Below are positions 47,565-49,381 of a stretch of 64,000 nt of DNA, piece after piece (position 1 is the stretch's first letter; each line of letters begins with the position of its first letter). The DNA lies in assembly GCA_039822165.1 (NCBI GenBank), contig JBCBMS010000017.1, forward strand, positions 59,713 to 123,712. Direction: 5' to 3'. The notes below the pieces were generated by a model, which ran no database searches, was not told the DNA's origin, and was given only the letters and a program-made list of their open reading frames with translations. The stretch comes from Chloroflexota bacterium. GTDB taxonomy: Bacteria; Chloroflexota; Anaerolineae; Aggregatilineales; Phototrophicaceae. The position numbers were made by a program, and so were the translations under genes.

Positions 47565-47570
47565 CACCCA

Positions 47571-47599
47571 GCAGGGGCATGGCACGCCATGCCCCATAC
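47571..47599. repeat. REP-like palindrome (core identical to the 40641-40668 copy)
   Basis: GCAGGGGCATGGCACGCCATGCCCCATAC, immediately 3' of metY at the junction with the low-GC cassette. Confidence 0.75.
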
Positions 47600-47641
47600 G
47601 GTACAATGGCCGTGTAGACCACGGCTCACGGAGACAGCAGC

Positions 47642-48697
47642 ATGTACACGTCGTTTCGCATTCAAAACTTCAAAGGCTTCAAAGACCTCGCGTTTAATGA
47701 GGGAGACCTCGCACGGGTGAATTTGATTGCGGGGAAGAACAACACTGGCAAAACGAGTGTACTTGAGGCGATGCTGATTCATAGTGGCAATGATTCACTC
47801 AAAGCAACTCTGAGAGCTACAGAGGGGCAAGCTGACTGGCAATCTTTGTTTCATAAATTCAACAGCGAGTCGTCAATTGACTTCTCTGCACGATTCAGGG
47901 TTGAGCAAAGCCCGGACTTAAAAAATGATCGTTATCGGCGAATTGAGAGTGAATTCTGGACGTTATCTATATTGCTTGAAGGAACAGTCGTAAAAGCTTA
48001 TCTCAATTACTCTGAACAGGCTGACCAAGAACACAATTATATTGACGTTACCAGTCGAACCGCCAGTAGTTCCAGCCTAGACATTAAGTCATATAGATTT
48101 ACAACTTTTGGTCTGATTTCTTTAGACTTCGTTTCATCAACTGAACACACAGAACTTCAACCAACAATACAACGATACAGCCGTCTTGTACGTCGAAAAG
48201 GTGGCAGTAAATTATTGACTTCAGTTCTCAAAAACCTTGATTCTAGAATTGAAAAGACCGAAATACTTGCACCGTTTGGTGAGACGATGATCTTTGTAGA
48301 TATTGGCTTAGATCAATCATTTTCTCTGTCCAGCATGGGAGAAGGTATGATAAAGATCACTAATATTGTATCTGCAATGGGCAATGCTCAGAATGGTGTA
48401 CTTCTCATAGACGAAATCGAGAACGGCCTCCACTACTCCGTGCTGCCGGATGTGTGGCGGGCCATCGACGAGGCATCGAAGCTGTTCAATGTGCAGGTGT
48501 TCGCCACCACCCACAGCTATGAGGTGATCCGTGCCGCGCATGAGGTTTTCTCGCAGGACAAAGATCTGGACGAAGAAGACTACGATTTCCGCTATCATCG
48601 CCTGGATCGACGTGTAGACAACGGTGAAATCGTACTCACTACCTATAAGCCAGACACGCTTGATTTTGCAGTGACTAAAGCGTGGGAGGTTCGGTAG
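47642..48697 (+). CDS. ABC/SMC-type ATPase (AAA_21/AAA_15-like), low-GC
   Basis: Walker A GKNNTGKTS near the N-terminus. Walker B VLLIDEIENGLH and H-loop ATTHS near the C-terminus, with a long insert between them. AT-rich codons. Confidence 0.75.
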   Translation: MYTSFRIQNFKGFKDLAFNEGDLARVNLIAGKNNTGKTSVLEAMLIHSGNDSLKATLRATEGQADWQSLFHKFNSESSIDFSARFRVEQSPDLKNDRYRRIESEFWTLSILLEGTVVKAYLNYSEQADQEHNYIDVTSRTASSSSLDIKSYRFTTFGLISLDFVSSTEHTELQPTIQRYSRLVRRKGGSKLLTSVLKNLDSRIEKTEILAPFGETMIFVDIGLDQSFSLSSMGEGMIKITNIVSAMGNAQNGVLLIDEIENGLHYSVLPDVWRAIDEASKLFNVQVFATTHSYEVIRAAHEVFSQDKDLDEEDYDFRYHRLDRRVDNGEIVLTTYKPDTLDFAVTKAWEVR

Positions 48698-49377
48698 TGG
48701 TTGTACCGGAGCGACGTCCACTCACAGATGAACCAGTAGCTTTACTTGTAGAAGGTGAACTTGACCAGAAATTTCTAATCAAACTCACCAATCAGTTGAA
48801 CCTGCCTGCCAAATTATGGATTGAGTATGTTGATGGTGTTAAAAATTTTGGTAAGGGTGTAGCAAATGTAGTAAATAACCCCGCCTACCGCAACCGATCT
48901 CTAAAGATTCTTGTCATCCTGGGTGATGCTGATGATGACCCAACCAATGCGCTTGATGTGGCACGAAACGCGCTGATAGGCAACGGATTCAAACCACACG
49001 AAAACGCAGGTGCGCTGGGTGAAGCAAATCGTTATGGCGTTCGCTCCGGCGTCTATATTTTTCCGAGTGCAACCGATCAGGGTTATGTGGAAGACCTGTT
49101 CATCAAGGGGTTGATGACAGAACCAGACGACGTAATGGCCTGTGTTGAGGATGTCCAACAAACGCTGCTGGATTGTCTATTCGGTGCTGGTCGGCCCATC
49201 AAGCCACATGAAGTCTCGAAATTTAAGATGGAGCTATTTGTGCTGGCTCGCCGGGGAAAGTTACCAACAAGGGCACTGCATGAGATCATGTTCAATGAAG
49301 ACTGGTTTCCCTGGGATAGTGGCGCATTTGATGATATAAAGCAGTTTTTACACATGCTTGCAAATGCGGTGAAATAA
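48697..49377 (+). CDS. Toprim-like (DUF4276-like) protein, translationally coupled to the ATPase
   Basis: Conserved Glu in LLVEGELD and a DxD cluster in ILGDADDDP (Toprim hallmarks). GTG start overlaps the ATPase stop (TAGTG), with GGGAGGT 7 nt upstream. Confidence 0.55.
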   Translation: MVVPERRPLTDEPVALLVEGELDQKFLIKLTNQLNLPAKLWIEYVDGVKNFGKGVANVVNNPAYRNRSLKILVILGDADDDPTNALDVARNALIGNGFKPHENAGALGEANRYGVRSGVYIFPSATDQGYVEDLFIKGLMTEPDDVMACVEDVQQTLLDCLFGAGRPIKPHEVSKFKMELFVLARRGKLPTRALHEIMFNEDWFPWDSGAFDDIKQFLHMLANAVK

Positions 49378-49381
49378 TATT

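Follow-up and report, generated by a model that had tools for sequence, protein, structure and literature searches.

A two-gene cassette of an ABC ATPase and a DUF3226 protein with an OLD-type Toprim fold in a methionine operon of an Anaerolineae bacterium: a candidate anti-phage module

Background

[quoted passage not shown] PARIS works only with its two genes and both catalytic sites functional, and its ATPase senses the trigger (PMC9122126, among others); the system is recognised by an ATPase scoring at least 32 bits for AAA_15 or at least 27 bits for AAA_21, together with a DUF4435 partner scoring at least 27 bits (PMC9122126). AbiL of Lactococcus (AbiLi/AbiLii) follows the same two-gene plan of an ABC ATPase and a predicted TOPRIM/OLD nuclease, and the two systems have been classed together as ATPase + TOPRIM pairs (PMC13064643). 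In OLD classes 1-3 (P2 Old, Thermus OLD, BpOLD and GajA of Gabija) both parts are carried by one polypeptide, and the active site of BpOLD comprises E400, E404, D455, D457, E508 and K562 (PMC6755086).

Further pairs come from embedded cassettes. PDC-M38 is a bioinformatic candidate of PADLOC, proposed by 'guilt-by-embedding' from cassettes inside BREX, DISARM or type I RM loci and given as two protein-family IDs only (Payne et al., bioRxiv 10.1101/2024.01.29.577857). HEC-01 (Hma-embedded ABC ATPase + TOPRIM) was not protective against the panel used, unlike its fused relative HEC-04, which required both active sites (bioRxiv 10.1101/2024.01.29.577857). The founding structure of the Pfam family DUF3226, PH0156 of Pyrococcus horikoshii (PDB 2P62), is a structural-genomics entry; this crystal structure dates from 2007. 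No mention of DUF3226 or PDC-M38 was found in the literature searched.

Results and discussion

Organisation of the locus

The window, a stretch of 64,000 nucleotides from a Chloroflexota genome, contains two genes on the forward strand between a metY-like O-acetylhomoserine sulfhydrylase gene (46233-47564; Pfam Cys_Met_Meta_PP, 3e-127) and a metX-like homoserine O-acetyltransferase gene (49382-50581; Abhydrolase_1), both of which are flanking context outside the cassette and are transcribed in the same direction. Gene 1 (47642-48697) encodes an ABC-type ATPase of 351 aa according to Pfam and a structural model, similar to AbiLi and PDC-M38A of PADLOC. Gene 2 (48697-49377) encodes a DUF3226 protein of 226 aa with an OLD-type Toprim and a helical domain, a predicted metal-dependent nuclease. 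The first-pass annotation, made from the sequence, had given this order of open reading frames, and its coordinates are borne out, as is the translational overlap that it placed at 48697 next to a Shine-Dalgarno-like GGGAGG: the stop codon TAG of gene 1 (48695-48697) and the GTG start of gene 2 (48697-48699) share one base (TAGTG, 48695-48699, forward strand), with GGGAGG at 48684-48689. An alternative in-frame GTG start of gene 2 is located upstream, at 48682. The overlap recurs in other copies of the pair, as TAGTG in L199, TGATG in L006 and TAATG in E. coli MB06172. Only 4 nt separate the gene 2 stop from the metX start, and in L006, L002 and L199 the two codons overlap (ATGA); translation of metX is probably coupled to gene 2.

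The order of the operon is JAB-metY-[pair]-metX-ThiS-ThiF, and the cassette is probably co-transcribed with the methionine genes. Scans for a promoter or terminator of its own gave no excess over shuffled sequence. A search of positions 43000-54000 against Rfam gave no match, and a riboswitch explanation was therefore dropped. In the seven immediate neighbours Pfam recognises only ordinary domains (Band_7/MVP shoulder, DUF4404, Prok-JAB, ThiS, DUF4395, thioredoxin and ThiF-rhodanese), and no second defence gene was identified beside the cassette in the window, the neighbours being judged by Pfam. Such a location in a biosynthetic operon is atypical of a defence system.

The ATPase

Gene 1 matches AAA_21 (1e-21, 78.6 bits) and AAA_15 (4e-21, 76.6 bits) of Pfam. 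Among PADLOC models it matches AbiLi PDLC02336 (3e-57, residues 1-351 on 1-340 of a model of 340) and PDC-M38A PDLC04611 (3.7e-53, full length), with four more PDC-M38A models also matching, while AriA models lie far below these (3e-28). A Walker A motif, GKNNTGKTS (47732-47758, forward strand, with K37), and a combined Walker B and D-loop, VLLIDEIENGLH (48398-48433, forward strand, with D257 and E258), were read from the sequence, and an H-loop, ATTHS (48503-48517, forward strand, with H291), follows. In 48 homologues G31, N33, N34, G36 and K37 of the first motif and D257, E260, N261, G262 and H264 of the second are invariant, as are A288, T289, T290 and H291 of the H-loop. These motifs and the likeness to AAA_21 and AAA_15 had been pointed out before, and both hold by sequence and Pfam. 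The AlphaFold2 model (pLDDT 85) retrieved GajA (2e-14), PtuA, an SMC head and Rad50 in a Foldseek search, over a range of 2e-14 to 1e-11, as well as Thermus OLD. Its motifs and modelled fold place the product of gene 1 among the ABC ATPases of the GajA/PtuA/SMC-head type, with the features shared by SMC, Rad50, GajA and PtuA.

The middle of the protein (aa ~48-200; 47783-48241, forward strand) corresponds by position to 'Insert 1' of ABC ATPases. It is AT-rich (GC3 0.33), beta-rich and hypervariable, its identity to the L006 and L199 copies being ~20%, which is the family background, and parts of it are modelled at lower confidence. Insert 1 has been proposed as a specificity determinant of defence ABC ATPases (bioRxiv 10.1101/2024.01.29.577857), and by analogy the hypervariable middle of gene 1 is proposed here as a sensing surface.

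The DUF3226 protein

Gene 2 belongs to DUF3226 (PF11536; 69.5 bits against a gathering cut-off of 27 bits, residues 15-221 on 3-206 of a model of 208), and the counterparts in L006 and L002 score 93 and 77 bits. The resemblance to DUF4276 that had been suggested for it did not hold: neither gene 2 nor these two counterparts matched DUF4276 at E <= 10, a result compatible with very remote kinship, as HMMER filters drop most matches with E above ~0.1. Gene 2 also gave no DUF4435 match at E <= 10. The PADLOC models of AriB and AbiLii were not matched at E <= 0.1, and OLD-like_TOPRIM_1 was matched marginally (E 0.04-0.13).

A PDB sequence search with gene 2 alone returned nothing meaningful, and a gene 2 profile matched 2P62, to which the protein is 12-13% identical. 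The structural model of gene 2 is of high confidence and resembles 2P62 and the Toprim regions of OLD, GajA, AriB and retron-Ec67. It shows the Toprim fold with the added helical domain that characterises the OLD family, confirming the Toprim assignment of the first-pass annotation at the level of a model. The ATPase + Toprim architecture of a split OLD-like system likewise holds at the fold level, in the models of both proteins. The product of gene 2 thus has an OLD-type Toprim fold and is a predicted nuclease, and an uncharacterised Pfam family is newly linked to the OLD nuclease fold.

The two acidic signatures noticed earlier, the glutamate of LLVEGELD and a DxD cluster, are present in the sequence and form part of a larger set of conserved positions on the forward strand. 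E19 (codon 48751-48753) with the acidic D23 (together 48751-48765) are candidates for BpOLD E400 and E404; E19 closes a predicted strand (14-18) and occurs in 135/136 family members, and an acidic residue stands at position 22 or 23 in 131 of them. D77-A78-D79 (48925-48933) may supply the equivalents of D455 and D457, with D77 at the end of a predicted strand (71-77) and found in 136/136 members, and D or E at position 79 in 122/136. E132-D133 (49090-49095) opens the first helix that follows the Toprim sheet (predicted at 131-139) and is the candidate for E508, a ligand of metal B (E132 in 134/136). K175 (49219-49221), in a helix of the helical domain (predicted at 170-186), is conserved in 135/136 and is the candidate for the catalytic K562. 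Each of the six residues E19, D22/23, D77, D79, E132 and K175 is thus kept by 122-136 of the 136 members, and together they are ordered like the two-metal site of OLD, their candidate equivalence to BpOLD resting on linear order and secondary-structure position rather than on superposed coordinates.

The window copy itself is remote from its relatives. A word-indexed homologue search with gene 2 found only gene 2, the homologues having come from exhaustive HMMER searches, and tblastn of gene 2 against plasmids and phages gave no match.

Comparison with described systems

The two window genes, adjacent and on the same strand, match the A and B models of PDC-M38, gene 2 at 1.9e-8 for PDLC04624 and 3.9e-7 for PDLC04623 (PDC-M38B, judged by E-value); other family members likewise match. 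The PDC-M38B matches are moderate (30-44 bits), which places the window clade at the periphery of these models. Classification with PADLOC, which the earlier annotation had recommended, therefore identifies the pair as a PDC-M38 candidate, gene 1 being AbiLi- or PDC-M38A-like and gene 2 PDC-M38B-like. The window pair is a further member of an already catalogued candidate defence family; it differs from the described PDC-M38 cassettes in lying in a methionine operon rather than in an RM, BREX or DISARM locus. The outcome is a refined annotation and an experimental target, and nothing is overturned.

PARIS or AbiL proper was considered and excluded by the identity of the nuclease partner. Gene 1 exceeds both ATPase thresholds of the PARIS rule, but the partner that defines PARIS is a DUF4435 protein, of which gene 2 shows no sign in the search given above; weak AriB matches (E 5e-4 to 6e-3) were seen in two other family members. 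Similarly, gene 1 satisfies AbiLi over its full length, but the nuclease partner is from another family than AbiLii, for which five other family members gave no match at E <= 0.01. In contrast to the single polypeptides of OLD classes 1-3, the window pair consists of two reading frames with a stop between them, and the UvrD/GajB-like helicase of Gabija is not adjacent to it. HEC-01 shares the two-gene logic but is a different family by sequence: gene 1 matches HEC-01A weakly, and one family member gave a similarly weak match to HEC-01B.

Pairing and mobile contexts of the family

Family loci in metagenomes and viruses were located with the gene 1 alignment, as the gene 2 alignment has no conserved stretch suitable for scanning. 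A gene 2-like reading frame follows gene 1 in 62 of the 63 metagenome loci with room downstream and in 23 of the 35 such viral loci; the pairing is obligate. DUF3226 thereby acquires, beside its OLD-like placement of active-site residues, a compact ABC ATPase as its constant partner.

Mobile elements carry the family at established defence hotspots. Pairs occur in lambdoid nin regions, in a P2-type element and, in E. coli MB06172 (WP_112844573.1 and WP_112844574.1; NZ_CM129887.1, 1170185-1171893), in the psu-int interval of a P4-like satellite, an interval defined as a defence hotspot (PMC9122126). A tblastn search with a consensus-like family member matched ColRNAI Klebsiella plasmids of ~4.1 kb (pKpnB4_5 type), which have no cargo but the pair, and no cultured phage, and the lambdoid-type pair of L164 had no near-identical copy among 5,426 E. 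coli genomes. These homologues from the defence hotspots of Enterobacteria provide pairs that are easily testable in E. coli and Klebsiella.

Composition and history of the metY-metX site

The cassette is foreign in composition. Its GC falls to a minimum of 0.39 at 47850-48300 between flanks of ~0.60, and GC3 is 0.46 in gene 1 and 0.44 in gene 2 versus 0.79 in metY and 0.77 in metX; over cassette genes and segments the values are 0.33-0.47 versus 0.72-0.79 in the flanks. The GC dip reported at first is thus supported by both windowed GC and GC3, and in the family as a whole the cassette lies below its flanks in GC at 53 of 55 loci.

Most relatives lack the cassette in the metY-metX gap. In about 50 of 80 of them metY, whose orthologues are 66-84% identical and lie directly 5' of metX in the closer relatives, adjoins metX, including L001 and L003 of the same clade. 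The cassette is accordingly neither universal at this site nor host-like in composition, as the earlier proposal of a horizontally acquired insertion had implied. A simple recent landing, which that proposal also suggested, is contradicted by strongly diverged copies at the same site in other Anaerolineae. Apart from the window, the family stands exactly between metY and metX in L002, L006, L198 and L199 and, by a short motif only, in L204, which makes at least four and probably five related Anaerolineae sequences. Their gene 2 copies are 30-43% identical to each other. The window, L006 and L199 each have the two reading frames intact; gene 2 is also intact in L002 and in L198, and gene 1 in L204. 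These copies are mutual nearest neighbours, and a single ancestral insertion is not claimed since their neighbour-joining bootstrap is only 40/100. The cassette is long resident in the operon and, compared with the flanks, has diverged to an extreme degree; either diversifying selection or allele replacement brought the alleles to the level of the family background. The locus is an example of a defence-type cassette that has stayed for a long time in a core biosynthetic operon while diverging to that extent.

The REP element noted at the 5' junction is real. A perfect palindrome with 10-bp arms, GGGGCATGGCacGCCATGCCCC, stands 3' of the metY stop (47574-47595, no strand assigned) and has 5 copies within the 64-kb window versus 0 expected, indicating a true genomic repeat. 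It does not mark the insertion: the metY stop is also followed by GC-rich hairpins, unrelated to this one, in L006 and at the empty sites of L001 and L003, which rules out an insertion scar and assigns the hairpin to the metY 3' end. No convincing direct repeats flank the cassette, and hence neither a target-site duplication nor an insertion mechanism is proposed.

Possible function

The cassette is fairly probably a two-gene, PARIS-like module directed against phages or other mobile elements, composed of an ABC ATPase and a small OLD-type Toprim nuclease. The anti-phage role suggested by the first-pass annotation gains from the catalogued PDC-M38 candidate and from the defence hotspots, while the function itself we infer by analogy, as also the roles of sensor and effector and the substrate. 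An oligomer of the ATPase would hold the nuclease inactive, with the hypervariable middle insert as the sensor. A trigger made by the phage would bind, in a step linked to the binding or hydrolysis of ATP, and so free or activate the nuclease. Using two-metal catalysis, the nuclease might then cut nucleic acid, either tRNA or DNA, and stop growth of the infected cell.

The pair might instead be a selfish, toxin-antitoxin-like addiction module, in which a nuclease toxin restrained by the ATPase stabilises the carrier DNA rather than stopping phages. This is unlikely, yet several observations fit it: the ~4.1-kb ColRNAI Klebsiella plasmids that carry nothing else are non-mobilizable and number >100 records, the Pfam text for AAA_21 reads 'putative AbiEii toxin, Type IV TA system', a 2026 review describes PARIS as acting as a type II TA pair, and the cassette persists at one operon site, with gene 2 coupled to metX, in several diverged genomes. 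However, deletion of either gene was non-toxic in the original PARIS study (PMC9122126), the clean empty sites of L001 and L003 imply that loss is tolerated, and the P4-like and lambdoid hotspot positions are typical of defence cargo. Addiction is also compatible with defence, the two not being mutually exclusive.

A housekeeping or operon-specific role, in host DNA or RNA metabolism or in regulation of the methionine and sulfur-carrier operon, is very improbable. The common operon position with overlapping start and stop codons in at least five related genomes or contigs, and promoter and terminator signals not above chance, would agree with it, as would the cell-cycle rather than defence role reported for an archaeal OLD-family ATPase (PMC12796447) and the archaeal origin of the founding DUF3226 structure, which has no functional assignment. 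Against this stand the foreign composition, the extreme divergence, carriage of the family by prophages, a satellite and small plasmids, and the empty gaps of most relatives; moreover, metX or metY is nearby in 0/117 other family loci, and with the empty gaps this led to rejection of a metabolic role.

A combined reading, in which the defence module is wired into the methionine and sulfur-carrier operon and armed by a metabolic alarm, also has a very low probability. Through co-transcription with metY and metX and coupling of metX translation to gene 2, the dose of the module would rise under methionine or SAM starvation, as might be caused by a SAM-degrading anti-restriction enzyme of a phage. 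Its place inside an essential operon would further shield the module from deletion, and the AT-rich hypervariable middle of the ATPase might reflect repeated swaps of sensor segments through the conserved ends.

Least credible of all is that an old insertion has lost its function and is decaying, and merely has yet to be deleted: gene 2 of the window is off consensus at G76 (R in 115/136) and H101 (P in 128/136) and its nearest relatives are only ~30% identical, but the reading frames are intact in the window and in other copies at the site, gene 2 is modelled with high confidence, and the ATPase motifs, the six putative catalytic residues, both conserved cysteines (C149 and C160) and the stop/start overlaps are all kept.

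Organisation of the locus

The first-pass annotation had placed two open reading frames between metY and metX, and both were found as described. On the forward strand, the metY-like gene (46233-47564; Cys_Met_Meta_PP of Pfam, 3e-127) is followed by gene 1, encoding an ABC-type ATPase of 351 aa (47642-48697), gene 2, encoding a protein of 226 aa (48697-49377), and the metX-like gene (49382-50581) that flanks the cassette downstream. The supposed stop/start overlap is present as well, the TAG of gene 1 (48695-48697) sharing one base with the GTG at 48697, with GGGAGG located 8 nt 5' of this GTG; gene 2 could also start at an in-frame GTG at 48682. 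All the motifs named (Walker A, Walker B, H-loop, LLVEGELD and DAD) occur in the sequence, and the GC content does drop, to 0.39 at 47850-48300 versus about 0.60 in the flanks. GC3 is 0.46 in gene 1 and 0.44 in gene 2, versus 0.79 in metY and 0.77 in metX.

The interrupted operon (45702-53281) encodes Prok-JAB, MetY, MetX, ThiS, DUF4395, thioredoxin and ThiF-rhodanese proteins, and its gene order is identical in the related locus L199. The operon may serve the synthesis of homocysteine and methionine by way of a protein thiocarboxylate (sulfur carrier). Just upstream of the operon, the minus strand (43145-44584) encodes a protein of 479 aa that combines SPFH/Band 7 with major-vault-protein shoulder domains; a small DUF4404 gene follows. 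Promoter-like and terminator-like sites are not in excess around the cassette, and the gene 2 stop lies 4 nt before metX in the window and overlaps it (ATGA) in three relatives (L006, L002, L199); co-transcription of the pair with the surrounding operon is therefore the simplest reading.

The REP element thought to mark the 5' junction is a genuine genomic repeat, since the palindrome at 47574-47595 has five copies in the window versus none expected, but as a junction mark it fails, because in empty sites metY is likewise followed by hairpins, of unrelated sequence. The copies of this palindrome, (GTA)GGGGCATGGCACGCCATGCCCC(TAC), lie at 9171-9192, 21404-21425, 40643-40664, 43114-43135 and 47574-47595, two of them being exact, and those examined are at gene ends. 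No direct repeats flank the cassette, and an Rfam search of the locus gave no match.

The ATPase and its DUF3226 partner

Gene 1 matches AAA_21 (1e-21) and AAA_15 (4e-21) of Pfam and, over its full length, the PADLOC models AbiLi (3e-57) and PDC-M38A (4e-53), with far weaker matches to AriA, GajA, PtuA and HEC-01A. The protein database contains 3,483 homologues of it, the closest only 43% identical. The P-loop, Walker B/D-loop and H-loop do not vary across 48 aligned homologues, and residues ~48-200 lack a consensus. In the AlphaFold model (pLDDT 85) the ABC core is predicted with confidence, and the middle is rich in beta strands and in parts of low confidence; the nearest folds are GajA, PtuA, the heads of SMC and Rad50, and Thermus OLD (Foldseek, E 2e-14 to 1e-11).

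The suggested likeness of gene 2 to DUF4276 was not borne out: the family is Pfam DUF3226 (69.5 bits, cut-off 27). Gene 2 also matches PADLOC PDC-M38B (E 2e-8), and no match to AbiLii, AriB or DUF4435 models was obtained in PADLOC and Pfam profile searches. The family comprises 327 representatives in an exhaustive HMMER search, all single-domain proteins of ~200-230 aa, and its profile matches one solved structure, PH0156 of Pyrococcus horikoshii (2P62, E 8e-6). The Toprim signal in the sequence is marginal (OLD-like_TOPRIM_1, E 0.04-0.13). In the confident AlphaFold model (pLDDT 92.9, pTM 0.88), four strands alternate with helices, and a helical domain comes after them. Conserved residues are E19 (135/136), an acidic residue at 22/23 (131/136), D77 (136/136), D/E79 (122/136), E132 (134/136) and K175 (135/136). 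In order and in kind of secondary-structure element they match the active-site residues of the class 2 OLD nuclease BpOLD, E400, E404, D455, D457, E508 and K562 (PMC6755086), suggesting that the two sets are equivalent.

Two cysteines of gene 2, C149 (49141-49143) and C160 (49174-49176), each kept in 132/136 family members, are 11 residues apart in one predicted helix (144-163) and are absent from the OLD active-site residues given in PMC6755086; they may belong to a metal site or an interface.

To assess pairing of the two genes, loci were retrieved with gene 1 and scanned with the gene 2 family profile. Of the 63 metagenome loci with enough room, 62 have a gene 2-like ORF immediately downstream in the same orientation, as do 23 of 35 viral-contig loci, the exceptions among the latter being more distant ATPases. 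L199, L006 and E. coli share the one-base overlap of stop and start codons.

Relation to known systems and possible mode of action

The cassette is a further member of an already known type of system. The locus agrees with DUF3226 in the features tested and with PDC-M38 by E-value. It differs from AbiL and from PARIS in the family of the partner protein, and from OLD classes 1-3 in not being a single polypeptide. The AriB component of PARIS reportedly cleaves tRNA (2024 papers in Nature). The pair probably works most like PARIS or AbiL. PARIS depends on both of its genes and on both catalytic sites; the trigger is bound by the ATPase, which also keeps the nuclease in check (PMC13064643, PMC9122126). 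By analogy with PARIS, the variable insert of the ATPase may sense a phage product, and the ATPase would then release or activate a two-metal nuclease, the product of gene 2. Payne et al. (bioRxiv 10.1101/2024.01.29.577857) likewise argue that specificity resides in the inserts of defence ABC ATPases; for a similar pair, HEC-01, no protection was seen in that study. The main value of the locus lies in the link between DUF3226 and OLD and in readily testable enterobacterial homologues.

The metY-metX site in relatives

As expected of an inserted cassette, it is absent from most metY-metX gaps of relatives, but it is not confined to the window: four of the top five gene 2 relatives, from a library of 1.84 billion representatives, occupy the same site (L002, L006, L198, L199). 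Both met genes are present in 54 of 80 MetX-related loci, 9-402 bp apart in 52; the other two are L006, with the cassette, and L009, with a gap of 801 bp and a GNAT gene (158-aa acetyltransferase, in the interval 5204-5898). In L004, non-coding palindromic repeats (1-322) precede metX in place of metY. The host is a metagenome-assembled genome of the class Anaerolineae (Chloroflexota). Within the window's own clade (MetX ~80% identical), the sites of L001 and L003 are empty and those of L002 and L006 are occupied by the cassette. The reading frame before the best gene 1 relative, P0002 of locus L204, ends in QPVS and a stop, like MetY, though this is a short motif only. No met genes were found near the 117 other family loci.

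Copies at this site share just 30-43% identity in gene 2 and, in gene 1, 82-91% in the N-terminal, 19-23% in the middle and 50-57% in the C-terminal segment; the gene 1 copies barely exceed the family background, and their clade has a neighbour-joining support of 40/100. Because same-site copies occur in relatives and have diverged strongly, the site has long been occupied by the cassette in this lineage, either because a single insertion diversified and was lost in places or because alleles were replaced repeatedly. All four scorable copies (window, L006, L199, L204) have the same GC3 mosaic in gene 1 (N-terminus 0.62-0.76, middle 0.33-0.40, C-terminus 0.45-0.66), with 0.37-0.47 in gene 2 (three copies, L204 lacking it) and 0.72-0.79 in the flanks. 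The ends of gene 1 are thus nearer to host GC3 than its AT-rich, hypervariable middle (47783-48241 in the window), which has ~20% mutual identity with its L006, L199 and L204 counterparts.

Mobile elements and defence hotspots

In 53 of 55 loci the GC content of the cassette is below that of the flanks, the mean difference being 8.6 points. The cassettes on which the candidate system PDC-M38 is based lay within BREX, DISARM or type I RM loci (bioRxiv 10.1101/2024.01.29.577857). On IMG/VR contigs the cassette lies between lambda-type O/P and NinB/Q, and also beside a P2-type nickase. In E. coli MB06172 (L203, NZ_CM129887.1 1161185-1180893) the pair is part of a P4-like satellite, with the delta/psu genes on one side and the integrase on the other; the psu-integrase interval of such satellites is a reservoir of antiviral systems and the source of PARIS (PMC9122126). 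This satellite adjoins ssrA, and two more unannotated ORFs of the same interval (270 and 480 aa) had no Pfam match.

The DUF3226 family was also found on 139 plasmids, 134 of them from Klebsiella and mostly ColRNAI replicons of ~4.1 kb. These Klebsiella carriers are tiny and non-mobilizable (L201, NZ_CP030722.1, 4119 bp, and 133 further records). The ATPase is fragmented in pKP13c. pKpnB4_5 carries an intact ATPase and DUF3226 pair and, apart from Rop and an HTH protein, no other cargo; its ATPase gene crosses the record origin and is absent from the gene table.
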